Below, one piece after another: positions 951 to 54,300 of a stretch of DNA of 64,000 bases (positions within the stretch are counted from its first letter, which is position 1; each line of letters opens with the position of its first letter). Under the pieces are notes generated by a model that saw only the letters and a list, made by a program, of their open reading frames with translations, made no database searches and was not told where the DNA came from. Source of the stretch: Chrysomallon squamiferum (lineage: Eukaryota; Animalia; Mollusca); the NCBI GenBank assembly GCA_012295275.1, contig CM022670.1, forward strand, positions 31,496,001 to 31,560,000, in the 5' to 3' direction. Made by a program: the position numbers and the translations under genes.

Positions 951-10463
<9,513 letters not shown>

Positions 10464-22584: not shown

Positions 22585-25195
22585 CTAAGCATCATCAGGT
22601 CTCAGTTTGAACAATATGTTAATGACGTTTTCATCAGCAAGTGTGGAGGTGTCTCCAAGATCCAGGTCACCCACAGCTACCTTTCGCAGAATGCGTCTCA
22701 TTATTTTACCAGATCTTGTTTTTGGCAATGCAGGTGCATTCTGGATGAAGTCGGGCTGTGCAAAGGGCCCAATTTTTGTTCTCACTGAAATACATGTATT
22801 ATAAGTTGTCATTTTAAAAGTGATTTTAATTATATTTATTATTCTTTTATTCTTTTTATTTCTTGTAAAAACCAATTCTATTTTATATAGGCTATTAATG
22901 TCAGTGTAACATTATAGAAACCAATGAAATAGTCATCCAACTTTTATCATATCTGAAGCTCAAATAAAAAAAGCATTCCTGTAGCTGGTGTGTCGTTATA
23001 TGTAAATACACAGACAGACAGGCGTATATATGGATTCCTTAGCCAGAAAAACATGGAATAAATAAATTACAGAATGATTATCTGCTAAAAAGTATCTTTA
23101 AAAACCCACACAAAACAGTTGGGGAAATTATTTTATGGGTAACGTATTATTTTTGACTTTACCCATATTTTGTAAATTTTGTATTTACCCATATTCTTCA
23201 GTTCCTGCAATAGATTATCGTTGAAACGATATCCCTGAAAAATAAAGAATCTGTCACATGACTGCAAAAACTGTAATTCAATAAAATGGTTTTTTTTTTT
23301 TTTACCTATTCACAATGATCTCCTAAATAAGGATATATAAAAATAAACATTTTGTGGTAAAATTATTCGTCCCATGCCAGAAACAAAATTCAGTCCTACA
23401 AATTAAATTACAAAGGTTACTGAAAATGAAATAATCTGAAAATAACCGACATTATTTTCATAAACTAGTGTTACTCACTTGAATGAAGTAACATTAAATA
23501 CACAAGTATTACTGACAGTTATGTGTTGTGAAAAATATAAACTATACACTAACTGTTTAAAACCAGTTCTTACTTCTTTCAGAGTGACAAAACAGTATAT
23601 GCAGTCACCCTTTATATCATGTGGGTGGGAAACCGATGCTGCCTCAGTTACAGCCTCATGCTCAATCAGAGCAGATTCCACTTCTGCTGTACTCAGTAGA
23701 TGTCCAGATACATTGACCATATCATCAATGCGTCCTGTGATCCAGATGTAGCCATCTTTATCTTGTCGTGCACCTAGTAGAATAATTGATATTATTATTT
23801 GGTATCAAATTAAAAAAATTGTTATAATAATGAAATAAAATGAAAGAAAAAAGAAAAAGCAATATTTATTGTGGAATCCCAATATATAACCTGAGGAGTT
23901 ACTGAACATAATATAAATTACCATCTCCAGTGCAATAATATCCTGGGAATTTCTTAAAGTATGTTGTTTCAAATCTCTCATGATTGCCATATACGGTTCT
24001 CATTATTCCTGGCCATGGTTGTTTAAATACCTACAAAAATATCAAAAAAAAAAAAAAAAAAATATTACTCAGAAAACTGTTTTTATCTTTCAGTTATTAA
24101 ATAAAATTTTGCAGTTATCTAATTGATTTATTTTTGTAACAATTATTTTTAATAAGTTTCTTAAAGTTTTAATTTTTAATTTTTTGTGTATGCATGATAT
24201 ATACATATAAAATTTATAAAAATAAAAATTGGGTTAAATAAATAATTACTGCTCAAATTTGTTATCTATAAAATAGTATTCATTTTACATTTTAAATGAT
24301 GTCGGTTAATTAATTGAAATTAAACCAATGCTGTTGGAAGTCAGGTTATGTCAAGATACCTTGTCTAAAGCTTTTCATATTTTAATTGACAAATAATACT
24401 TAAAATATCTAATGATTAAAAGTAAGAAAAAACTTACCAAATAACCTTCTTTGTTAGAATTCTCTGGAATTTTTTCTCCTGTTTCTGACAAAATTTCTGG
24501 GACAACTCCAAAGAATGGAAAGCACTTAATTAAAAAAATATTATTAATATTAATTTTTTAGTTTTGTTTTGTCAAGGAAATATCTGAAAGTCAGAATTAT
24601 ATAATTCAGTTATCTATGCTAATTAACCACTACCGTATAACCAAAATTTCCAAGTAAAAAAAAAGAAGTAAATAAATAAAATAGAAAACAAGGCAATACA
24701 AAAAATCAATTTACTTACTGCTGATCCAGGTTTGGTTGGTGTTGCCCCTGGCAATGGTGTTATAACATGGCCTCCCTGAAAAATATATTAGATGTATCAT
24801 GATTGTTATTTTAAAATAATATATAATGCAGAGATAAGCTGCTAAAATGTATTTATGAATATTCTATACATTATGTAATATTTATATTAATGTGATCATT
24901 ACTATTTTATAAAAAAAACCACCCAACAAATAGAGACAAGAAAAGGTTTTATGTAATGTACTTTCCATTTATTATTTACTTTTTTTGTCAGTGATACAAT
25001 GCCCAGATTTTATTAGTAGAACATAAATACTAAATCTTATAAAATAAAAGATAAAAACATACTGTTTCAGTCTGCCAGAAGGTATCTACAATTGCACATT
25101 GTTCATTGCCAACTACTCGATGATACCATAGCCAAGCCTCTGGATTAATTGGTTCTCCAACAGTTCCCAGTATTTGTAATGATTTTCTTGAATGC

Positions 25196-25274
<79 letters not shown>

Positions 25275-28200
25275 TATATATATATAATTTTTTATAGCAA
25301 AATAATTATCATTAAAAAAATAACAGATGCAAACAAATGCATATTAATGGCACGATTTAAAAAATAAACAGAACATTTTGTTTTTGTTTTTTTTGTTCCA
25401 GTTTGCTAAACAAAGTAATTAATAAAATAAAAACTAAGAATTAAGATGAAAAAAATATATATTTAAAAAAAAACAAAAAAAAAAACATATATATATTGTA
25501 AGATTCAAAATGTAAGAATTTCTAAAATTTTCCCAAAACACATTACAACAGAAACTTAATGTCTTAAAAATAGTAAGAATTGTAAGAATGAAAGTAATAT
25601 ATCAAACATACTTTGTGACAAACTCATCTCCATACTTCATCAGAGTTCGAATGGCAGTAGGAGCAGTGTAGAACTTTGTGACCTTGTATTTGTCAACAAT
25701 TTCCCAGAATCTACCAGCATCAGGGTACAGTGGAACACCCTCAAACTGGAATGTGAAATTTTTATATTAATAAGTAATGAAATAAATAAAGAAAGAAAAA
25801 CTAATATTAACTATGAAATCTTTGTATAAGATATGAATAAATGAATACCTGATGTAAACATTAACTTACAACTATTTTGAATAGTATATTCATATTTTGG
25901 GGAACTGTCTTTCTCCAATATGAAAATCAAGCTAGTTTTAAACTGATCTTCATAAATTTTAAACAGTTATTGGAGTTTTTACATTTCTAACATATGTTTG
26001 TTGCAAATAAATAAATAAATAAACTTCATCAGCTATGATTAGCAATGAGATGAAAGGAAATCTGCAAGTGATACAACCTTCCCATGTACAAAAGCAAGTA
26101 ATTATCTTTCAATATTCTTTTATAGTGCAGTTGTTTTACTGGAAAAAACTCCAAAGAGCACAATAAAATGCACTAAGGAGAAAATATCTTGCAACCCATC
26201 ATTTAAAGGTTCCAGATACATTCTGTATTTTGAAATAAGCAAAACCCAGATTTAAATAAATAAATAAACAAACAGATAAATGGGGTAAACTAGCAAAAAT
26301 AAGTTTCGTCACCTTTAAAATACCATATTACACTTACGATTATTCCTGTTGCTCCATTACATAGTGGTCCATAACAAACATATGTATGTCCTGTAATCCA
26401 TCCAACATCTGCAGTACACCAGAATACATCATCTGGATGGAAGTCAAAGACGTACTTGAATGTTGTAGAAGAATAGAGCATGTATCCTCCAACTGCATGT
26501 AAGACACCCTTAGGTTTACCCGTGGAACCACTAGCAAATATTAATCAAATAATTATGTTACTATTGAATAAATTAATTAATTAACTAATGTTTAATGACA
26601 TATCTGCACAAAATTACACTGGCTATTAAGAGTCAAAAAAACAACAACTATATTACCAAGTCAATGAAAATACTCACATGAATTCAGCACTAACAAATTA
26701 ATTGGGTATTCATTAATGTTCCAAATAATTAAAGTAAAGCATAAAGTGTTTTTGTTAGAATTAATTGTATTCTGTTGTTCACAACCATTTTTCTTCAAAT
26801 ATTTTAAAAAGTTTAATGTTTTTGTTTCAGTCTTTATAAGAATTATATTTAAAGGTTGGTTTTTCTAAATCAAATTATGAAAAGTAAAATATCAGACCTA
26901 ACCTAGTATAAAGCATAAAAAGAGGATCTTCTGCGTCCATCCATTCTGGCTCACAAACAGGAGACGACTCTGCCATCTGTTCGTGCCACCAAACATCACG
27001 CTCAGAGTTCCAGCTAATCTGAAAATTACCAGTGACAATATTAAATAAATTTATTTATTTATTTATATATTTTTGTTCACACAATACCGGCTTGATCAAT
27101 TAAAGTTGTTTCTAACTGCTTTTGATTAATTAATATTACATTACAAATGTTTCAGCTGCAAATTGAAAAAAAAAATATATAATTAAAAAAAACTTAAAGG
27201 AGTATTATGAGATCACATTTAAAACACTAGCTTTTAATTTTTTTTTTTTTAAATCATAATTTTAAATCATACAGTCATTTATTTTGGGCTTTTTTTTTTT
27301 ACATTATAAGATGATTTAAAAATAAAATGAAAAAGAATAATGATGATGATAATAATAATAAAGTCACTGTTTAATTAGGAATGTAATGACATGAATAACA
27401 TTTTACCTTGAATTTTGCATATGGTCTTTTAGCTGGAGGTTCATCACCATTGATACTTTGATCCACAATGACCTCATCTTCTGGACTCAAATGTCTGACC
27501 ACAATGCATTTTTCTACTTTGTGGCCCCTGCCAGAAAATTGTTTTATGTTAATTGAAAAAACATTGTTTATTCAATTTTATTTTTAAATCATATTATCAG
27601 TAAAGATAAAAATGATTCAAGTAAATATATAAAAAAGAGAAACTATGTTACTGAAAGAAAAAAAAAAGAAAAACCCACAGAAAGAAATTACAAAACAAAA
27701 GTTTATATTCACATATTTAATAATAAAATTTGTTTAAATGCCGAGTATTAATGGCATTTTATTTATTTATTTTTAGAATTAATATTTAACTTAAAAATAA
27801 AAAAGAACCGTTACAAAATATTTTTTATGAATATTTACACAGAATTACCTTTCATTACACAAGTCAATTGCATCATCAACAATTTTTTTGAGATTCAGCA
27901 ACTTTGTACCTCTCCATACACCATCTACGTAAATTATTCAAATTTTGATAATTAGGTTTAAAAATAATACAATTCTATATGCTAAATATATCACTATAAT
28001 TGAGAAAACAAATTATTTTAAGTATATGACATTAATATTACTATTTTATTAGTCATAACATCTACTAATAATACAGTAATAAAAGAATATAACAAAAAAA
28101 AAAACATTTTGTTGAAAACTTTTACAATTTATTTATAATTTATCAAATTAAAAAAGACAATTTCAGACAAATATATTAAAAGTATTTTGTTTACTATGTT

Positions 28201-29909
28201 CCATGTTAGTCCATAAAATAATAATCAAAACAAAAAAAAAAAACAGAAGAAAAAATAATTGTAACAAGTATTTAGTAATAAAATTGTTAATATTTTATAC
28301 AAACTGTAACTGTGAAATCATCTGAAGATTTCAGAAATGTAAAAAATATATTACATAAAATCATTAACAATAGGGTTTTACTGATTAAAAATATAAACTT
28401 TAACAGTTTTATTGAAATGATTTATAATTTGCCATGCACAAATACAAAAATCATTATAGTGAAAAAGAAATAAGTTCAACTGTATTAATGTAAAAATATT
28501 AATACTTCTTAAATAATTCTTAATTAGTGATAAATTTTAAAAACTGAAGCATCTAAAAGGTATTTGTCAACCTGTCTATGTTAAGAAAATTATTACTGAA
28601 AACAATTAAACTACACATGTATATAATTAGATTTAAAAATGTGAAAACCAGGTAACAGATATAATAAAGAGTAAATCAAAGGATTACATAAAATAAACAA
28701 AATAAATGTTTGAGGTAATTGCAGAGTATTTATTTATTTAAATCTCAGTAAACAAGAATAATGAAGCTTTTAAACAAAGATATAAAAACTGATTCTATAA
28801 AGAAAAAAAACTGTTCCTCTCATCAAACATGAAAATACTTCAAGCAGAATACTCTTACAAAAAGCAAAACAATGAGGTATATAAATATCAATCCACCACC
28901 AATACCTGTGAAAGATTAGCATATTTATTGAAGCAATCCAGCACAGTGATAATATTGTAAAGATTTAAAACATCTAATCTTTAAAAGGTAATTACCGTAT
29001 ATACTTGTGTACAAGGCGACCTTATGTATAAGTCGATGTGTATTTTAAGACCAAAAATTGCGTCATTTTAGGTATTACTTGTGTATAAGTTGACTGTAGA
29101 TTCCAGGCACCGTCACTATTTTTAGACCAGTGTGACAGTGCCATGAAGGCCTACATTGTATGCCTACTGTAATATAACTTGCATGAGCTGTAACTTGCAT
29201 GTGCAATTCAAAGTAAGATAATTTCGGAACCTCAGCAATATTTTTTTCGGTCAAAACTCTGCTACAAGACATGCCCCCGATCCTATTCCTAGCGCGCTAA
29301 TTGGCCGAGGCTTCGCGCACTTGGCAACCGACTAGAATAACAAACATGGCGAGAAGTTGAACTGATTTTTGTTGCAGAACGTTTATAGAAATTTAGTTTG
29401 TCGGTAGTGGATATTAATGACGATTGCAATATTATTTCACCAAATTCTTTACAATTACACAAGTGAGTTTTGTTTATGAAATTAGGACCGATATTTAGTG
29501 CAATTTGGCAGAGAAGTCTGCATTCCTAGATCATTGCACGACGCCGTAAGGCATAACGCCGTACTGACGGTTTTCTCGCTTTAAAATGTATTGTTATGTC
29601 ATTAAACGGAAGAATATCATGTTTTACATTCATATTTGGTTTTGTTATTTAATTTTTCAAAAATTTTTATACGATAAAATTATATTTTTGAAAAGCTGAA
29701 AGACCGCGATTATTTTAGATGCATCCCGTAGCAAAAAATAGTCAAAATGGCGACTCTTCAGCAACAGCTACAAAAGCATTACCTATGTATAAGTCATCCC
29801 CACAATATTACCTTAATATAGTCTCCCAAAAATTCAACTTATACACAAGTATATACGGTATATACTCCTCTTTAAATATTATATCAGTAGTAACTGTAAT
29901 ATCTATTTT

Positions 29910-29953
<44 letters not shown>

Positions 29954-31616
29954 ACAAAAACATTTATAAACTGTAAAGAGATTCATTAACTTATTCATAT
30001 ATCACACCTAACAGCAGATGTAATCATTCAGTCATTATTAATGTAATAACAGAATTTAAAACAGCAAAAAATATATTTATATATATATATAAAAAAAAAA
30101 TAAACACCAGCATGATAATCAGTAGGTCCCTACACATTACTAAGTGTTAAAATCCAACTACAATCTCCTTCTTCTTGTTGATTTGTTAACAAAGGAAAAC
30201 CAGATATAATACAGTTAATATACTGAACCATGTTTGTGTTTGACTCAATTACTCCATTACTTTAAATGCATCAGACTGAAAAATATGTCATATTACAGAG
30301 CTTCATGCAGAATTACAGAGCACTTACTGTGTTACAAAAATAGAAACCATTTTTAATTCTGAATCAGTACATGTATTTAAAAAAAATGTATCAACACTGA
30401 AATTATTGTAGATAAATTATATATGGTTTATATCTGCCACAAACATAAAATCTGACACAGATCAGAATGAATTAGCATTTGGTGTGCAACCAAAAAATAA
30501 TAATTAAAACATTTCACAACACACTGCCTTATTTTGACATTCACATCCAATTATCAGCTGATGTACTTAATTGACTTCAGTTCATCAGGTGATAACTGTC
30601 CGATTATATGTTAGAAATTAATATGACATGTTTACAGGACGTGATCTGCTTGAGGTACAGAAAAAAAATAAAAAGATTTTTATCAAAATCTGTGTAAAAA
30701 ATGCTATGATAAATTGTGTGTTGTCTGAAAAAAAGAAAAGTATTTTTTTTTTTATTAACAGTATACCAAATTTTAATTTCAGTGTATTGATTAGAACCTT
30801 TCTTTTAAAATAAATGGCACATGGCTATAGGTTTGTATTAAAATATTGGAGCCATCAAAAATAAAACATCAGTAAAAACACACTAAACATATGTTTCCTT
30901 TATTATTTATTTTCCTTTTTGTTTAAATCTGTTAAAAAGAAACTCCACTTTTTAAACATTTAATTATATAAATTGCAAGTTTCAAACAAAAAGTGAACAC
31001 ACTAACCCACATTTTAGGACATACTTAGACACTTATAGGAATAAAATTTCATTTTAAATATATCAGCATATTTTACACTTTTTACTGTGGCTATTACTGT
31101 ACCAGCAATTAAATATTAATTCTCTAAAGACATACCATTTAAAAAAATAAAAAACAAAAATTCTCACAATCATGCCACAAGCTAAAGAGAAAACAAAAAA
31201 GAAAGATTTATTTAATAAAGGCAATTTACAAAAACACTTTCAATGTGAAGTGTAAATGCAGCTATTAAATTTTTTTGAAACTTTCATGGCTTCTGAGTGC
31301 TCATTTATGAAGACCAACAATTTTGGATCTAAAATATTCTTCTGCATATCAAAAGCAATTTTTGAAAATTTTATAGCCAAACTTTTTAAGAGCACACACC
31401 TGATGTAATTATTGCTCTACATTTGGCATCAATCACTCGATTGGATAAGGATTCTGAAGAAAACCCAGCAAACTAGAAAAAGAAATAATTTGGTTAACAC
31501 AAAATTAAACATAATACACCAATCAACACCAGCTGTACTAAGAGAAAAATGGCAGTAAACATGACTGTTAAAAAAGTAATTCACTACAATGTTAGTTCAA
31601 AAATAAAAAATAAATA

Positions 31617-31666
<50 letters not shown>

Positions 31667-34600
31667 CAACAATAATAAAATATAAATAAATAAAGTCAAA
31701 CAGAGAATACAGAAAACAAATATGTTTTTTTAGGCAAGCTCTTTTATGGTTTTCTTACTATTTGACATTTCCTTCATGTTACTGGTGAGCTACAGATAAC
31801 TTGAAGAAACAGTAGCCCATAATTAAAACAAAAAAGAATTGCTCATTTACATATTAAAAAATAATTAAAAAAAACATTCCCTGACTATATCTCTGAAAAT
31901 AAACTATCAAGGCAGTTTGCAGTTAAATTCCTAATGAATAAAATAAACAAATTAATGCATACTAAAATAAAATCTTCTGAAAAAGACATTATAGGGTGAA
32001 AAATAAGAAAAACTGTAATTCAGGGTATAAAGACTGGATCATTTTAAATTATTTTTATTTTTAGATAATTCCTATAGAAACGTTATGATGATAAAATTCT
32101 TTTGACAGTAAGAAGTTTATTCAAATCTGAATATTGATTATTTATACTTTTCAGATACATCATACAGGCATCTAAAATGAAAAAAAAAAAAAAAAAATTA
32201 TAATAACCATTGCTGTTTGAACTACATTATTATATAAAACATCAACAGATTAACAAAATCCTTGATGTATGAAAACATGAGAACAAAATTGGTTAAAAGC
32301 ATGCAAAACAAGCTGGTTAACAGAAAGCACACAAGCAGGGTATTAACTAATTGCATATATGAAAGTAGATCTGACAAAATCAAAGAAAATACTGATTAAA
32401 AAATAATATTAAATTTCAATTTCGAAAAATTATTTCCTTTAATTCTGTTATTTAAATCCAATTTTCTTATAGATTATTTATTAAATTACTGGAATATGAA
32501 CCATTTAGGCATGTCAACATTTGTATGATCTGGGTAACAATACAAAGAAAAGGGTTTTTTTTAAATTCAAGAAATTATAAATGCTGTAACAAATATATAT
32601 TAATTTTAATATTTAAATTTCTTTTCAAAAATAATCCAAATCATACAACTTCCATTCAGATCTAGGTATAAAAAAGGAAAGAAAAGAAAAAGAATTACTA
32701 AAGATATGGCTAACCTCCTACTAACAAAATCTTTGCTTGACCATCACAAATGCGTTGAGCAAGTGAGAGATCAGAATAGCCACCAAACTAAAAAATAGTA
32801 AATAGTTAAAAGAATAGAAGAAAATGTTAATATTAATGTATATCAAACTAGTATTGTTAGTCAGATACATGTCCACTATAGAGACTAATGAAACGAATGT
32901 AATTTTATCAATAGTATCCAAAATAAAACAAACAGGAGACTACTGCCCTTTGTAGATGTTAATCTGTAACTATAAAAGTAAATTCTGGAGTGTTTCAATT
33001 TTTTTCAGAATTTCAACAAAGAGTTTAATATGATTTACTTTTCTAACTTTATATGAAATGGAATGATGCATACATACATGCATTAACCCCATAAAAAGAA
33101 AAAAAAGAAAATCAAAATATTAAGTTTAAAAAAAGAGAAAGATACAACATTTACTGACAACAGAATTTTCATTATTATCCTAGTTATTTCTACTTCAGGT
33201 ATAAACAAAACAGACCAATTATTAAATATATAAGGATAATTTATATAAATTCACATATATATAACTTATGTCACATAAAATGTAAATTACTTTCATTTTA
33301 GTTTACTGTGAAATTTTAAGAAATCTTACAAAGCATATTTATATATTTTTTTTAAATAAACTTTATTTAGTAAGGTGTTTTAATTATTCACATTATAATC
33401 ATTATCATGATCATTAGTATTATAATAATTATTTCATGATTAATTTAACTGACACAAATAATGACAGCTGTAAAATATTTATTCCTTACCACGATGGAAT
33501 GAATAGCACCAATTCTAGCACAAGCCAGGAGAGCAACAGAAAGTTCTATAATCATGGGCATATAGATGGCTATACGGTCACCTTTTTTTATACCTAAAAC
33601 AAAAAAACAAAAACAAAAAATTTAAAATTTTCTATGTATTGTTGCTACTGAGACAAAAGTTTCAAATTATAAAATTGTTTAAAATAATAATAATAATAAT
33701 AATAATTTTCAAAATGAAAACAAAATTTTAACAACTTTATTTTAATTTTATTTAATTAAAACATGTTCCATTTCATTATAATTAAGCCTTTCATAAACGA
33801 TGTTTTTAAAGTGGTGTAACAAAAAGGTTTTTCTGTACAGTTATTAACAAATAAAAGATAAATCATAGCATATATTTATATCAACTCACCAAATGATTTC
33901 AAGACATTGGCAAATTTACACACCTCTTCCAGAAGCTTGCTATAAGTGATCTGCCTATGATCTGTTGGATTGTTACCCTCCCTAAAAATAAAATAATTTG
34001 TGTATTTTAATAGTCAATATTATTCAGCAACATCAAATATTCTGTACTCAAAAGAAACTGTATTAGGTATTATCAAATTGCTGACCTTTTTAAAATATAA
34101 AATTAATAAAATGCCCTACCTTTTAAACATTTTTTATTAGCATATTACATTATAAACAGCATTTGATATATTTTTGTTATAGCTCTAAAGCTAAATCCAT
34201 AAATCTCCATCTGAAAGTGTAATTTTCAAAACAAGTCAAATGAAATAATAATAATGATAATTCAGTTATGAATGAAATGCAGCCTTTTTCTGATAAGAAA
34301 ACTGGCACAAATCAAAATAAATTTACTTAATATATTTTTATCTTCAAAATATATTCATTGACATTTCTCAAATATATCTATTAAATGCATTTTTTCAATA
34401 AAAATGTTATTTCATTTCAGCATTGCAGAAAAGTTTATTTTCATGAAATACATACACGTATATTAATTTCAAAAAGTTATCTTTGACTGGATTTATTTAC
34501 ATAAATTTAAGTCTTTTTTCTTTCTTTCTTCATTACACAAAACAGTCTGGCTGATCACTGTTGAACACCAAGTTATCTTCAAACAGTTTATATCTTTTAC

Positions 34601-36189
34601 ATCTTTTTAAATAACCACAATGTTAATTTTGACTTTGATATTAATTATTGTATTTATTTTTATATAGTAATTAATATTTAAAAGAAACAAACAAATAAAA
34701 AATATATATGTATATTATTATATATAATTTGAAATGAACATCCATTTAAAAATATAAAAAAATGCTTTGCTTTAATTTAAAATAAGTGTACACTCAAGCT
34801 GCAACACTAAATTAAACAAAAGGATCCTGCTTGTACCATAGACCGTAACTTGTACTGCCTACAGAATGTCAGATATTTATACAAATATATATATATAAGT
34901 AAAAAAAATTATATTTTAAAAACACATGTATACAGATAATACACATATGACTATGGGTAAAAGCATCATTTAATTTTTATTATTATTTTCTTTTAAAAAG
35001 AAACATCAACAAATAAAAGTTTATCACTAAATAAATAAATCATTAACAAGTGACTTTTCCTTTCTATTAGTAATAAAGGTAAAAACAAGTAATTACAATT
35101 AAGGTACATGTGTCATATTAATGTCCTAAAAGTTAAAACTGCTGGAATTATAACATACAAAACAATCTTGATCTTAAAAGTTAGCTTTATGTCAAGCTTT
35201 TTCTGTTATCAAAGCATTATATAAGTTTAGACACATACATATATGTGTACTTTAATAAATCTTTCTGGTTGAACTATATATATATATATAAAAATGCACA
35301 ATTAAGTAAGTACAAATGAACACTGTTGCATATATCAAACAGTTCTAAATGTATACACATAAACAGGCCTACACAAACACACACATTACAATTATTTTTT
35401 TAAAATTTAATTTCAGTTATTTAAAATGGTTAACATTAGCAAAATAATAATAATAAATAAGGTCATGGCTCCTGGATTGGTCAATATTTGCTTAATACTA
35501 TCTTTAAACATACACTGATATTAACTATAATAATGAAGATTATACTATTTTTATAGTATAAATAAAATTAATAAATTGACAATTAACAATAAATACAATT
35601 ATATTACACAGTAAATCTTCAATAAAACATATCCATTATAATGATTATTCAAAAATAAAAAAATAAAAAGGACTTATACATGATGTACAACTAACTGAAT
35701 GATAATGGATACAATTTTAAATTATGTGTAAATTGTTAATACTAATATAGTAATATTAAAACTTAAAAGGCCGTATTTAAAAGAGGGGGTGGGGAAATAG
35801 AGTTATTAACTTATTATGATTATAATATATTTATCGATTACAACCAAATGTTCTTACCAGTAAAATGCAACTTTGTCACCAAGGCCATTTTTCACGTGTC
35901 TGTCGACTGCATTATAACAAATATTTGTTGTTGCACCTTTCATCCACCTTATATAGATAGGTCCTTTTCTTATGTCAAAATTGAACTCGAAAAATTTGCC
36001 AATTGAAAAACTCTTCCAATAAAATTGTTCTGCAATGTTCCCCCAAAATTCTTCGGGATTGTCAACAGATTTCTTATACATCTGTCTGTACTGCTGCATT
36101 GATTTAATGTGTGCATCATTGCGTATGTCCTTCGGAGGGCTGAAAACATCCATGTCAATAAAATTATTGGCCAGAGTGTCGGCCATCAT
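22585..36189 (-). CDS. ACSS2: Acetyl-CoA synthetase, cytoplasmic type (ACSS2-like), 16 exons with alternative exon 4
   Basis: Exons: 35858-36189, 33890-33981, 33490-33593, [32715-32787 OR 31400-31472], 27849-27924, 27407-27527, 26903-27018, 26338-26530, 25612-25745, 25063-25195, 24719-24775, 24438-24524, 23922-24030, 23574-23773, 23189-23234, 22585-22784. Motifs [43 protein letters not shown] and [12 protein letters not shown]. No obvious mitochondrial presequence. Confidence 0.96.
25198..25285. repeat. Compound (TA)n(CA)n(TA)n microsatellite abutting an ACSS2 splice acceptor
   Basis: Directly visible. Ends a few nt from the AG of exon 25063-25195. Confidence 0.95.
28995..29858. mobile_element. 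Non-autonomous Tc1/mariner-pogo type DNA transposon (864 bp) in an ACSS2 intron
   Basis: TIR CCGTATATACTTGTGTA...TACACAAGTATATACGG, 17 bp perfect and extending with mismatches. TA on both sides (28993-94 and 29859-60). Internal TGTATAAGT subrepeats, CpG-rich interior, no transposase ORF. Confidence 0.85.
31400..31472 (-). CDS. ACSS2: ACSS2 mutually exclusive exon 4b ([24 protein letters not shown])
   Basis: 73 nt, phase 0 to 1, acceptor tctttttctag and donor gtgtgt. Closest to vertebrate ACSS2 FAGFSSESL. Confidence 0.92.
31621..31676. repeat. (AAT)n/(AAC)n microsatellite
   Basis: Directly visible. Confidence 0.9.
32715..32787 (-). CDS. ACSS2: ACSS2 mutually exclusive exon 4a ([24 protein letters not shown])
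   Basis: 73 nt, phase 0 to 1, acceptor tattttttag and donor gttagc. Open frame homologous to exon 4b. Confidence 0.85.
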
Positions 36190-39310: not shown

Positions 39311-40205
39311 GTAGTGTGGTTTCAAGATTTTTATGTCTCTCGTGGTGGGACATAATTTGTTACTTTTAAAAGTACATGCATTAATAGCTCGCAGTTGTAT
39401 TTATTGCTTCACTGATAGCATTTTACGACGAAATAAGTAATCTGAAGGTTGTTTATAAGTGGCGACGTGCATAGGCCTATCCCTGCTGGCGTTTCAGCCT
39501 GGAATTGGTGGTCCTAGTTTCATTATGCAAACATAGAAACTAGACATATTAATAATTTATTACCCCGAGATACGAAAATGTACTTATTCGTTTTTATTTA
39601 AAGTATTGTTACATTATAATGTTATTTGAAAGTCATCATAATCGTCAGATTTTAAGATAGGATCAACACCTTTTTTTTTAAAGTGGGTAACAATGTTTTA
39701 TATATATATAATATAATATAATAAATCATTCAAAATCTTAATAATCTTGATTATGTCATTTAATAATTCATAGTTGAAAATATCAGCATGCATAATCAGG
39801 TAAGAAAAACAATTATAACAAAAATTCAGAGATAGTACAACTTTTTATTATTTAACTTTATTAAGTCTATAATTATACTAATATTTTATTTGAATAATTT
39901 GGTGCAAGTCTGATGTGACCAGTGACTTAGTATGGCACATTATATCATATATCCCACATGGTCAGGTATAATTTTTATCAGAAAAGGCATACTTTTGCTA
40001 TTTTCAGAGATTTTAATAGTAAAAAAAATAAGAATCTAAGACAGATGTATGCTTTATAGAAATTGATAAATATATATATATATATATATATTTATTTATT
40101 TTAAGAATATTGAATACATTTTTTTTATTATTTTATTTATTTATTTTTCATAAAGGTCAGTCTGATCATTATTTTTAAGATGTGGATAAACACATTAAGC
40201 AAGTG

Positions 40206-43200
40206 ATGGCAGAAGGAGGGCAGAATGATCCATCCAGACTGCAAGGATTCCAGCTTCATTCTAATGGTCTTGGTAATAGCCAAAGACCTAATGAATCAAT
40301 GCCATTCAACAACTGGACTCAATTTAGTGGTGTGAATCCACCAGTTTCTCCGTCAGGGTTGTATTCATGGGACCAAGTCAATCTTTCACATGGTCTTTTG
40401 TCTGAACCATCCTTTATGAGACAGGTCCCAGTAGTTACAAATGATTATGTCACCAAATCTGAACCTGGACCACAATACTACTCCAAGTATTCCAGTTTTG
40501 TCCAGCAAGATCCACAACCCTTTGAGGATTTGTCTTCACCGATTCAGCAAGGTCATTCTGTGCCATGTCAGCATAATTTCTTGGATAATGCATTGCATAC
40601 AACACTTCCTAGGTCCATCCCACAGCAGTGTTTTTCAGCACCACAAAAGGAAAACTTTTCATCAGTGAACCAACCTCAGTTTTGTGAATCACCCCAACCA
40701 CAAGAATTACTTCTTGATTCATCACGACAGTTCTCTGAAGATTTTGTTTACAATATGGCTCACAGGGAAGGCTATGACATGTATGCTGAAGCTATGAACC
40801 AATTAAATTCTTGTGGCAATCATGGGGTTTACAAACCATTTGGAACCACTGACGTTCTAGGTCAGAGCAGACAGAAAGAATTCATTGAAGAAACTGCTGA
40901 CAGTACAAATACTAAGCCTACATACTCTGATGTAGCAAAAACTTTGAAGTCAAAGCCTATGCAAAAGCCAAAGGAAAAAGAGGAATTGGATGGCTTGAAA
41001 AAGAAAGTTGATAATATTCCTAAAAACTTTAAACCTGCTGTTAAAAAATCACACCCAAGAACATGTACTGGACGTACAAGGAGTTTGTCAAGTGATGGAA
41101 ATATTGGTTCTGTGGTCTTGCCAGATTCTAAGTATGGTCTTGATCAGTTTGAAGAAAATGATAAAAGTGGAGGAAAAGGAGAAAAGTTTGGTATATCTAG
41201 CAGTTCAGAAAATTTATCTTACCAAAGCAGGAAAGGCAGTACCAGCAGTGTCAGCAGTGGTACAATTGGAATTGAAGAAATTCTTTTAACAAAATCACTA
41301 AATAATCTGAACAGTGGAGACAGTGCAGTAAAACAAGCTACTGAAAATTCCAGGAAATCTGAACATTTAGGACTTTCAACAGACAGAAACACAAAAGAAG
41401 AAGTCAGCCCAGCATCACAGAAACCAAAAAATAATAATTCTTTCTTTGATCCTAAAAGAATATTTCAGAAGAGAGATAACAATTACAGGAAATCTGAACA
41501 TGTTGGACTGTCAGTAGACAAACACATTAAAGAAGAAGTTAGTCCAGCATCACAGAAACAAAAATATAATAATCCTTTCTTTGATCCTAAAAGAATATTT
41601 CAGAAGAAAGATGACAAACCGAAAGGTGATCACAAAAATGTTTCACATTCTAGATTGTCAGACACTGTATTAAATAATGGAAAGCCTGCTAACCTGAATA
41701 AGTCTTCGTCTGTGGCCTCAAAAAAGACTGATTATATCAACAATGACCTCAGAGATTCAAGAAAGAAGACTAATCACAGTGTTGCAATGACACGAGATTC
41801 CCAAAGTAAGAAGGCTGGTCCATCAGACTTGATTGAAAATGGTGGAGCTGATTCTGTACAAGATACAAGTGGGAAGAAGAAGAAAGAAACATCTAACACA
41901 CAAGCAGGGCTTGCTGCAAAGAATGTTCCTTTGACAGGACACATAGATTGGAAGTTGATAGGTACTAGTTGTGTTTTATTCCTAGATGATTATTTTCAAT
42001 TTTATTTTATTATTATTTAAAGACTTTCATTCTTGAATATAATTTTAAATTATTGATTTTTAAATTCACAGGTTGCAGACTAATCATCTTGAAATATCAG
42101 GAACATAGTTTTGATGATAGTTTCTGACAAAGGGATTTTAGCATTAACTTGAATAAAGATAGCTTGAAGACATTAATGAAACTATCTTATTCATTGTTTG
42201 AAAAACAAAGCATTCATAATTAAATTTTCCATAAAGTTAAAAAATTAACATTATACAATTAAAATAATGTTAAAAGAAATACATTTGTATATTTCATGCT
42301 AAAACTTATTGATATTGATCTTTAAAAACCCAAAACCCATACAGAAAATAATTATATAGCTAACGTAACATTGTTATATTACAGTACACAAAATATTTTT
42401 TTATAATAAGATAATATTTTACCAAATTATTCTTTCTTTTTTTTTCTTTAGTTTTTTTTGGTTAATATAAAATAAAAATAAAAATGAATGTACACTTCCT
42501 AATTTATCATTGCTACAGCTGAGATAACAAGATGTAAAAGAAATGAAAATAGAAATGTTTTATAAATTTCATTTTTCTTTAGATGATTGGTTGTCAGCTG
42601 TTGTTGAAAAAATTAAGGGTCCATTTTGCAATTTTTTGTCATTTGGACTGACACTGCTTATCTATCTTGTTGGAATTCTTATGTTTCTGTAAGTACTGGT
42701 ATGGAAACAAAAAGTTTAATCATAATTCCTTTCTTATTTTTGCTTTGGTTTATTTCTTCTTCACATTTGTAAACTAAAAAATAATTTCTTAAAAAATTTC
42801 AAGCATGCATTTTCATAATCAATTCACCCATAAACACTAATATTAAAAATATTTAACATACAGTGGTGAGTGATTTTTTTTTTTCTTAAATTATTCTTAC
42901 TTGTCCAAACTTGATTAATTAAACTAATGCATTATATATGTTTCAGTTTAGTTCGATAAGATCCATTTTTGAGCAGAACAGATCAATTAAGTAACAATAT
43001 ACCTTTATGTTTTAATTCAGTTTGATAATAAAAATTTATGGCAGACATCTCAGTAAGATAATATAGGGTGCTTAAGGTTAATTTTACTAATCAATATTAA
43101 TATTATGACCAATTAATCCAAGAGATACGATTTTCAGACCAGAAATATTGAAATTCATGGGCATTGTTAGTGAAAATGGTCATAATCAATAAGTAAAATT

Positions 43201-51304: not shown

Positions 51305-54300
51305 TTAACTGTTTTTTGCTGGAATGGCTATCAGAACAATGTTTTCTGGTGTTAAAATTTGATCAATATACTGTCTTAAATAGGCAGCCATTTTGTGTTG
51401 CAGTAAATATCTTATTCTGCCATAATCGATCAGTCTTTTACACTTTCGACCAATCTCTTCTCTTTCTTCCTCAGACATCCGCAGCTTGGAACTGAAATGA
51501 AATAATACATTTTTATCATTTTATTTTTTTCTAGTGTTGTCTTTACTGATGTTAAAAGTATGATAGTAGAAATAAAAATTCACAATGATACACAAAGGAT
51601 GATATTTTCTATTTCATAGTGATAGCATCTGATATACAGAAATTTAAACTAAAATATATTTTTTTTAAATATGATTTGTTTAAATTGTATTTGAAACTAC
51701 AAACATTATTAAAATATTGTACATTATGTGATTCTGGTAAAATCTACAACTGCAAATTGCAAATTCCAAATTAAATAATTCAGTAAAATTTTCCATACAC
51801 ACTCTTTAAAATATTTAATTTAAAAAACAAAAAAATATGCACATTAAAATAGGAAATGTGGCTCACGTTTGGTTTAATTCCATTTCTGTTTCATCATGTT
51901 CCTCTGTATCTATTTCTGAAAGTCTCTGAGTGGATGTTGTCTGTCTGTCCACATTTAGACCTTTATGTTTTTAAAATCAAAATATTTAAACTTCTTTTCC
52001 AAACAAATATGGACTTCTAGCTAGTATTTTAATTAAATTATACATCCATTTTGGTGATGTTTATAAAAGGCATCAAATTTTTTAAACTTGTAACATGCGA
52101 AGTGCAACACATCACGTATTAGTACTGGCATTAGTATACTCTACACTTCAGAGTGATTATTTTAGTCTATTTTAGTCTGTTACAGCAGACTTTGGTAATA
52201 ATGTATAGGCAATAGGTTTTTAATGTGGGAAACTTTTATTTTTAAAACAAAAATAGTAAAATGATTTTTTGTCTATTTATTTTATTGTCCAACTTTATTA
52301 TCAGTCAACATTGTTCCTCATAAACAAATAAATGACTTGGAAGAATTCAAAAAATATTTTGGTCATAGTATGTAGCACCAAAGATTTACATTAAATCTTC
52401 TTTTATTTCAGATCCTAGGTCTAAATGAGAAATAAAGAGAATTATAAAATATAAGCTAAAATTATAACAGGTTTTACTAAAACTACCTTCAGTTCTCCAT
52501 CCTTTCCATGTACATGTTGCCCAGCTGCTCATACTTGTAAGGAGTTGAAATTCATGAGGTGAAAATCTGCACTCTCTCATGAATTCTTTCCCCACATAGG
52601 CACTCCATGTGCATCGATGATGACAACACAAAGCAATGACGATGCCTGCTGGAGTTCTTGGATGTAAATTACATATTAAAAACATTTTGTTTATTAGCTG
52701 TTTTATTATTTCTTTAGTGTAATAAAATTATCATTGCAGGTCTCATTTTATTTTTCTTCATTCTTCTTTTTTTTAAATTAAAATTATAATAATTTTCAAT
52801 AAATAGCATATATGTAGAAAAGTTTTTATTTTAAGATCAAGTTCATAATAAAAAAGACAGAGTTTTAATAGCATTACCCCTTTATAAACTTTAACTATAA
52901 AGTCACTATAATGAATTACAACCCACATATCATAGTACAAATTATCTTTTTCCAATGACTATAAAAATTAATATATCAGAAGTATTTCATAAGCAAATGT
53001 ATTGATCTCATAATTACTTAAAATTTCACCTACTTTAAATGGATGTCATTTTCTAATTTTGGCTTTTTAGTAGTTGATTTTTCATCTTCACTGTCATCTT
53101 TATTATCATCTGGGCACTGCATGGTTTCTAAAAGACATCGTAATGCTAAATCTGAAAAAGGTAACACATTATGGCTAATGTAGTGTTTATTCCAAAAATA
53201 ACTATTAGTATATAAACTTTGTGGGGTTGTTTTTTATCCCTTCACACACTCTACTTATAATTATTTATTAATCAGTTACTTATGATTAAAATAATATACT
53301 TAATAATTCTAAAATCCTTTTTTACCACTCATTTTGTACTTTATTAATTTACTATTAAAATAACTATAATTTATTTATCTCCCACAATAACCAACTAATC
53401 ATGGAATTTAAAAGAAAAATGTAAAAAATATTAAAATGTTCTTTGTAATCAATACCATGTTATCTACCTATCTATCTATACAATTTAAAGATTTTGGCAT
53501 CTCACCTGTAGCTCCCCCGCATAAATGTTTACCCATAGCAACAACTGGTCTTTTGCTTTTGCCTGTAGTAAGATGTTTTCCTGCAATTTAAATCTGCAAC
53601 TAAAACTATCTGATATGTGCTGTGTAGGTAATACATAAATAAAGATTAGATCAAGACATAATTGTTTATACTGAAAAATACAACTTCATAAACATTTAAC
53701 ATTTTAAATATTTATTTAATAAAAATACATTTCAAATAAAAATATTAACTTTTCATAACACAAATTTTACAATACTAATTTTAAACAAAATTCTAACTCA
53801 TTGTGACATGCAAAACATATTTTAATTAAAAAGAAAATATATAAGGGTCATTCCATGTCAAATCACCCCAAAAAACCAAAATTTAAACCCGACCGTCTCA
53901 GATTTTTATAAAACTTGGTATACTTGTTGACTGGGATCCCACAGCACCAAATTTTAGCCCAATCGGACCAGTGGTGTGGGAGATATGGCCCACCAAATTT
54001 TGAGATTTTTGGCAAAAATGGGTGTGATCACCAACCTTAGAACCCTCATATCTCAGGAACTACTGAGCCAATCTTCATAAAATTGGTATTGTTGAAAAGG
54101 CAATATGACAAGGATTCCAAATCTGCCATTTTTGTTCAGTTCGGAAAATACTGGAGTACATTGACCTTGTGACCTTTGCTATGACCTTGAAATGGAATGA
54201 CCTTGAGATGACCTTTATTGAAAAATGGAATGTTAACCATATAAAAGTTTCCTGGGTGTAGTATTTTTGATTTAGCCACAATATATTAAAAAAACCACAT

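Follow-up and report, generated by a model that had tools for sequence, protein, structure and literature searches.

The gene for an ACSS2-type acetyl-CoA synthetase in the mollusc Chrysomallon squamiferum contains two tandem versions of one short exon, 4a and 4b, each of 73 nt and likely to be mutually exclusive. The gene lies within the 64,000 nucleotides that we analysed (assembly GCA_012295275.1, contig CM022670.1, positions 31,496,001 to 31,560,000 of the forward strand), hereafter the window, in whose numbering positions are given. We consider it probable that the pair goes back to one duplication that preceded the divergence of molluscs and annelids, and we predict two isoforms that differ in their handling of coenzyme A (CoA). 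Through ACSS2, acetate becomes available for lipid synthesis and protein acetylation. Both exons had been picked out in a first-pass annotation of this DNA, which proposed an old duplication with both copies kept. The pair is real and conserved, and it is older and more widespread than that annotation supposed.

Both exons are on the minus strand, between constant exons 3 and 5. Each has GT-AG ends with a pyrimidine-rich acceptor, starts in phase 0 and ends in phase 1 (4a: acceptor ...TTTTTTAG, donor GTTAGC; 4b: acceptor ...TTTTCTAG, with pyrimidines at 11 of the 12 upstream positions, donor GTGTGT). Their positions and peptides are as first annotated: two same-phase, stop-free exons with good splice sites. 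The strong divergence noticed at the DNA level is also there, with 33/73 bases and 7/24 residues identical. The exons stand out from their flanking introns in GC content (0.41 for 4a and 0.37 for 4b; 0.22–0.27 for the introns). A degenerate pattern built from 4a, 4b and homologous exons has exactly two matches in the window, 4a and 4b, and none in 100 shuffles; having been designed on this pair, it says no more than that a third match is absent. Exhaustive scanning of the stretch from exon 3 to exon 5 revealed no third copy either, the next score being 20 vs 122 and 116 for the two exons. In silico mRNAs 3-4a-5 and 3-4b-5 are both open, 3-4a-4b-5 stops within exon 4b, and 3-5 stops within exon 5. 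The frame logic already proposed thus holds: inclusion of both exons, or of neither, gives early stops. We conclude that 4a and 4b are likely a mutually exclusive pair derived from a tandem duplication.

Transcripts establish the use of 4a. Five sequencing runs cover the region, four of them RNA runs from one study, and their assembled contigs were mapped on positions 27300-34100. In all four RNA runs, one contig joins 33490 to 32787 and 32715 to 27924 with canonical ends (depths 184, 28, 93 and 88), so that 4a is a genuine exon, and the mRNA in question leaves out 4b. The earlier annotation would have taken 4a for a pseudo-exon had it lacked both transcripts and conservation. We reject that possibility, because 3-4a-5 is spliced in 4/4 RNA runs; counterparts are also present in molluscs and probable annelids. 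The doubt had been directed at the wrong member of the pair, since 4a, and not 4b, is the exon with transcript support. Of the four junctions that had been singled out for checking, 3-4a and 4a-5 appear in 4/4 RNA runs and 3-4b and 4b-5 in 0/4, in contigs that record presence only and from which minor forms drop out. A 4a-4b joint was likewise found in 0/4 RNA runs, where 4b shows no joints of any kind. Exon 4b is covered solely by unspliced contigs, at depth 3.6-8. An equal-length exon pair forms the type of bubble that assemblers collapse. Because assembled contigs show presence and not absence, the missing 4b joints were not counted as a sign that 4b is silent.

Unspliced RNA contigs (depth about 2-17) extend over 4b and about 1.4 kb downstream of it, from 30035 to 31595. 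This coverage could represent nascent RNA, intron retention or a transcript that ends early after 4b. Another part of the same intron between 4b and exon 5, 27981-28661, is almost without RNA coverage. The intron also contains an element at 28988-29865 with 39-nt inverted ends that are 79% complementary. RNA contigs stack on it at depth 300-1300 with several letter differences, and it is likely a high-copy non-autonomous DNA transposon.

The pair also occurs outside the window. A pattern for the exon plus its splice sites found 53 metagenome loci. Two copies are present in 24 of these, always in the order a then b (24/24) and amounting to 14 distinct DNA pairs; the other 29 have one copy, many of them on contigs too short to judge. 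Twelve loci span exon 3 to exon 5, four with two copies and eight with one. In a FastTree gene tree built without the alternative segment, the two-copy loci L044 and L049 fall outside Mollusca: they group first with the transcript-derived protein P0163 (support 0.99), and Capitella joins next (0.78). P0163, from a 3.2 kb contig, carries an a-type segment. The remaining two-copy loci were assigned to the same clade by near-identical exon peptides. From these relationships, the two-copy clade is a non-mollusc one and probably annelid, and we call its members annelid-like.

Both annelid-like exons bear the mark of selection on their peptides. The ratio of nonsynonymous to synonymous substitution rates (dN/dS; Nei-Gojobori, pooled pairs that are not independent) comes to 0.08 for the a exons (15 distinct sequences) and 0.22 for the b exons (17 distinct sequences). 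Variable columns are mostly third positions (a 22/34, b 20/33). These values indicate that both exons are under purifying selection in the annelid-like loci and, together with the a-then-b pair itself, uphold the idea of an old duplication with both copies kept. Moreover, the window exons each resemble their own type across phyla. The proportion of nonsynonymous differences (pN) from window 4a is 0.35 to annelid-like a and 0.44 to annelid-like b; from window 4b it is 0.30 to b, where the synonymous proportion (pS) is 0.68, and 0.48 to a.

The single-copy loci with a complete span from exon 3 to exon 5 are from a fish (L003), cnidarian-like (L004, L033, L052), basal (L028) and lophotrochozoan-like (L030, L043, L047). 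The 73-nt exon has identical boundaries in the fish locus and the three cnidarian loci. A single b-like exon is seen in lophotrochozoan-like ACSS2 loci L030, L043, L047/L021 and L035/L042/L050, with a complete span for L030, L043 and L047; these are candidates for loss of a copy, or for lineages that split off before the duplication. One two-copy locus shows a further repeat: L049:6849-7185 contains three tandem copies of the 3' portion of an ACSS2 exon (the ITGHTY... stretch).

Among molluscs, most homologues carry a b-type segment (identity to window 4b 18/24 in Aplysia and 17/24 in Mya). Segments of the b type recur in proteins of other animals that are encoded on contigs of transcript size (P0005, P0111, P0130). 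Divergent, a-like segments occur in RefSeq models labelled 'isoform X2' from Gigantopelta, Haliotis, Patella, Octopus and Ruditapes, a label that alone does not imply that X1 differs at exon 4. The transcript-derived, bivalve-like protein P0002 also has a divergent segment. Gigantopelta X2 matches window 4a at 16/24 residues. When Patella X2 is compared with Lottia, the segment agrees at 11/24 positions and the flanks at 47/48, and 0/593 other windows of the alignment are equally low. The figures for Ruditapes X2 and Mercenaria are 14/24, 45/48 and 0/553, and for Octopus X2 and P0130, a cephalopod-like transcript, 10/24, 41/48 and 7/614. Nine control pairs gave 16-21/24 in the segment and no outliers. 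The outlier segments are thus indirect evidence, and what would be expected if paralogous exons were being compared. Mean segment identity in molluscs is 10.5/24 within a and 16.4/24 within b. Sequences of the a-like type are therefore already on record in RefSeq isoform models, apparently unremarked.

We then compared the segments themselves. Exon 4 is equivalent to residues F163-A186 of Salmonella Acs and one further base, the first of the D187 codon, and exon residues are given in Salmonella numbering. Exon 4a has the a-type states Y166, A180, non-T185 and G186. The exon tree comprised 24 columns and 41 rows, with most b and outgroup rows left out and with 4/11 annelid-like a and 4/15 annelid-like b peptides. 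The best tree joins gastropod, Octopus and annelid-like a segments and a segment of the nemertean Tubulanus (96/84), places the b segments elsewhere, and beats the constrained trees by 12-20 log-likelihood units. Ile, Val or Leu at 185 is found in 4/4 gastropod a and 12/12 annelid-like a segments, in 0/16 mollusc b segments and in 0/32 outgroup segments; annelid-like b exons have T, A or M there. Gly186 is found in 2/7 mollusc a and 8/12 annelid-like a segments, 1/16 annelid-like b segments and 0/32 outgroup segments. A cross-phylum profile (annelid-like a minus b) gave means of +1 for mollusc a, -23 for mollusc b and -10 for outgroups, with -10 and -14 for the two bivalve a-like segments. The profile is only partly supportive of a shared a type.

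The Tubulanus segment in the a clade is that of P0168. Transcript-derived P0222 has another unusual segment, and both proteins may mark further lineages that have the exon pair.

How might one exon be chosen? The exons are 1242 nt apart in the window and 415-1876 nt apart in the 24 two-copy loci. This spacing rules out steric exclusion, as had been argued from the window alone. Incompatibility of U2 and U12 splice sites was also rejected: all donors are GT, none has the U12 consensus GTATCC, and all look U2-type. Docking and selector complementarity in the flanking introns, which the first-pass annotation had suggested searching for, did not turn up in scans of inverted repeats and shared 10-mers, made with no co-folding across species. 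Of 351 inverted repeats in the window, the 25 longest are either AT-rich or the ends of transposons; no intron 10-mer is common to more than 5/12 annelid-like loci, and the shared ones adjoin splice sites.

Short motifs do flank the annelid-like exons. Among distinct exons, 14/17 of type b are followed by TGCATG within 120 nt (mean in shuffles 2.9, max 8; 8% of background windows), and 11/15 of type a have CTAAC/ACTAAT downstream (shuffle mean 1.5, max 5; background 12%), both motifs having been picked after inspection of the same flanks. The strict form ACTAAY follows a in 5/15 (shuffle mean 0.8, max 5). ACUAAY is a QKI/STAR site. Annelid-like acceptors have 5-9 pyrimidines per 12 for a and 7-11 for b. 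In the window neither motif is proximal to its exon, although all four sense-strand TGCATG of the gene fall between exons 3 and 5. UGCAUG is the site of RBFOX, which controls the two-exon, mutually exclusive pairs unc-32 7a/7b and egl-15 5A/5B of C. elegans (PMC3585155). In unc-32 the motif follows the second exon, where the annelid-like loci also have it, and promotes the first exon in neurons; the position of the motif therefore does not tell which ACSS2 exon is favoured. The likeness has limits, as unc-32 is an unrelated gene and the window gene is without the proximal motif.

The swapped segment leads straight into the CoA-binding loop. The most variable positions, 168-173 and 175-182, are on a helix and the turn that follows. 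A model of the a-type Gigantopelta protein (predicted local distance difference test score, pLDDT, 91) has a loop at model positions 181-184, a helix at 185-195, a strand at 199-203 and a hairpin at 206-213. This model is based on an alignment and was used for secondary structure only; the alignment is mostly b-type, so the model gives no independent sign that the a form folds. A single-sequence prediction (pLDDT 37) was set aside. The hairpin directly after the exon 4 segment is the CoA-binding loop.

Published work places R191 (Salmonella numbering) in contact with the CoA phosphates (PMC10455477), and likewise R237 and K240 of Leishmania Acs (PMC11584562). For Syntrophus Acs, two residues at the loop start (the E188/G189 equivalents) are described as setting loop position and catalytic bias (bioRxiv 10.64898/2026.07.06.736832). 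The Leishmania residues map to the same CoA loop if an 8-residue offset is allowed. The cited phosphate-contacting residues R191 and R194 and the loop-start residues all belong to exon 5, which is constant. What the swap alters is thus the scaffold ahead of the CoA loop and not those contacts. The first-pass description of a CoA-pocket swap calls for refinement: the segment does lead into the CoA loop, but the contacts with the CoA phosphates sit in an exon that does not vary. The best-shared a-type changes are the two residues just before the loop, 185 and 186. We judge the chances that the a/b swap alters CoA kinetics to be evenly balanced. F163 and G165 presumably line the CoA adenine pocket; a targeted literature search found no publication on contacts of F163, G165 or Arg194.

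The CoA loop of exon 5 starts G-V and has K at the R194 position. In this it resembles ATP-forming Syntrophus Acs1 (G196, T197, K202) and is unlike the Salmonella Acs loop, which reads E-G...R. The G and K are common to most of the animal ACSS2 proteins listed, hence not specific to the window.

The explanation that we favour would run as follows. A single exon duplication would have occurred in an animal ancestral to both molluscs and annelids. The choice of one exon would fall to splicing factors, of RBFOX type and QKI-like if the annelid-like motifs are a guide, with 4b used in other tissues or conditions than those sampled, and mRNAs with both exons or neither would, given their stops, be removed by nonsense-mediated decay. 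The swapped loop, helix and strand would run straight into the CoA-binding hairpin. There the a form, which replaces near-invariant Thr185 and often Ala186, would shift the CoA loop and change the Michaelis constant (Km) for CoA or the turnover number (kcat).

Several observations weigh against this explanation, and those concerning origin favour a competing one, in which the exon was duplicated separately in molluscs (perhaps repeatedly) and in annelids, the upstream copies converged, and the exons are still mutually exclusive. Approximately unbiased (AU) tests do not reject the phylum-wise groupings that separate duplications predict (annelid a and b together, p=0.24; mollusc a and b together, p=0.085); just 24 columns inform the exon tree, and its a branches are long. 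The two bivalve a-like segments, which have Cys180 and Thr185, fall outside the a clade. Tyr166 and Ala180 occur in 5 and 6 of the 32 outgroup segments as well. L030, L043 and L047 group with lophotrochozoans and are single-copy though they span exon 3 to exon 5, so that a single origin needs losses. The annelid label itself draws on one named annelid, at support 0.78, and the annelid-like loci are related, which means that their motif and dN/dS counts are not independent. Separate duplications must nevertheless produce the same a-then-b order in both clades, a best tree that groups a segments across phyla, residues at 185 and 186 that the two phyla share to the exclusion of all outgroups, and window exons that are each nearer by pN to the annelid-like exon of their own type. 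Taking these together, we think separate duplications unlikely, and on the present sequences a single origin with losses would be fairly probable.

Other points weigh on whether both exons are used, and for what. Both mRNAs are documented here in no single species. If the choice in the snail has become fixed, 4a would be constitutive and 4b a recently silenced leftover, leaving one protein only. The lack of 4b joints and its coverage by unspliced contigs alone would fit such a state; by inspection, the 4b donor GTGTGT is weak, and the window has no counterpart of the TGCATG close to annelid-like b exons, its nearest copies standing roughly 410 nt downstream of 4a and 1090 nt downstream of 4b. 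Yet 4b has kept an open frame, intact AG and GT, a pyrimidine-rich acceptor and high identity to working b exons, and the runs are represented by contigs from one study, which drop rare variants. We regard recent silencing as improbable. A more serious, if still doubtful, alternative is that both exons are used for something other than CoA handling: stability, contacts within an oligomer or with partners, or down-regulation of ACSS2 through unproductive splicing and decay. The most variable positions are on the helix and turn and not at the FxGxS motif, of which both copies keep F163, G165 and S167 unchanged, as they do R174; the CoA contacts described in the literature, R191 and R194, fall in an exon that is not swapped; and a copies vary widely among molluscs. 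Constraint on the amino acids of both exons argues against a pure poison-exon role, however, and the best-shared a-type changes are on the strand that anchors the CoA-binding loop. A bolder version of our explanation, with the same early duplication, would have the a form reposition the CoA loop and so bias the enzyme toward the acetate- and ATP-forming reverse reaction, or toward propionate, for life at low oxygen. It is a long shot; if true, it would give metazoans an equivalent of the loop-controlled bias in Syntrophus Acs.

The closest known parallel is the gate-domain pair of ACSL1 and ACSL6, which belong to the same superfamily. There, according to PMC1543647 and PMC2868784, a short, mutually exclusive exon pair swaps a motif adjacent to the active site, and the resulting isoforms have a Phe/Tyr difference and different activities. 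The ACSS2 exons are an analogue only. We rejected membership in the ACSL gate pair on exon length, a different peptide and the short-chain specificity of the enzyme: the ACSL exons are 78 nt and preserve the frame, whereas those of ACSS2 are 73 nt and break it; the ACSL gene family is another one, and its exons form a fatty-acid gate near the ATP site, where those of ACSS2 form the lead-in to the CoA loop. Moreover, the ACSL pair is described in mammals, the ACSS2 pair seen in molluscs and probable annelids. Myosin heavy chain genes offer a likeness of another kind, with tandem exon clusters kept across phyla, lophotrochozoans included, and lost independently (PMC3912159); they encode a motor protein with many clusters, in contrast to one two-exon cluster in a housekeeping enzyme. 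Human, fish and cnidarian ACSS2 are single-exon at this point, with one copy between the flanking exons in the fish and cnidarian loci. ACSS2 is absent from 10 supplementary files of a catalogue of human mutually exclusive exons that contains ACSL6, the part of that source covered here (PMC5740500). Among the papers listed by a search of the full-text literature, mostly outside subscription journals, none, judged by its entry, describes this ACSS2 exon pair.

Among mutually exclusive exon pairs in housekeeping enzymes, a splice switch kept in two phyla would be one of the older. It would parallel the ACSL gate switch at another site of the same fold, and would amount to a natural experiment with two states of the element preceding the CoA-binding loop. 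There is a practical consequence too: in molluscs and annelids, it is a matter of chance which exon a single gene model or a transcriptome assembly contains, and comparisons of orthologues are distorted over these 24 residues. The mechanism class is familiar and the a exon is already in database isoform models, so the surprise is moderate.

The identity of the host gene follows from its domain content (ACAS_N, AMP-binding) and the names of its matches; on that basis we assign it to ACSS2, ACSS1 being absent from the tree. The best named matches of exon 1 are mollusc 'cytoplasmic' acetyl-CoA synthetases. In the gene tree, the window protein is sister to that of Gigantopelta aegis within Mollusca (support 1.0; 87% identity over 578 columns), and P0138, a close relative, matches Salmonella Acs at E 4e-220. 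The host is accordingly a gastropod, and a vertebrate source was rejected. The exon map is given in the table; the 3' end of exon 1 corresponds to a loose RNA-contig end at 33982.

Table. Features of the ACSS2-type gene in the window
Feature	Position	Strand	Basis
ACSS2-type acetyl-CoA synthetase gene, first ATG to stop	22585..36189	-	tblastn exon map with mollusc proteins; Pfam ACAS_N and AMP-binding_C; gene tree
Coding exon 1, ACAS_N domain	35858..36189	-	start codon assumed to be the first ATG of the open reading frame
Exon 2, 92 nt	33890..33981	-	tblastn map; RNA contigs
Exon 3, 104 nt, phase 0 end after H-S-I-V	33490..33593	-	joint 32787/33490 in 4/4 RNA runs
Alternative exon 4a, 73 nt, divergent a type, spliced form in RNA runs	32715..32787	-	
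Intron 4a-4b, 1242 nt, with one TGCATG (32305) and one ACTAAY (31596)	31473..32714	-	
Alternative exon 4b, 73 nt, canonical b type, intact, joints in 0/4 RNA runs	31400..31472	-	
Exon 5, 76 nt, constant, CoA-binding loop (R191 and R194/K equivalents)	27849..27924	-	joint 27924/32715 in 4/4 runs

The neighbourhood of the gene includes CDC48/VCP exons at 3153-6242 on the minus strand, one of them with a Pfam CDC48_2 match, a 613-codon open frame with no Pfam match at 40179-42020 on the plus strand, and a TRM13 methyltransferase exon at 52386-52727 on the minus strand.

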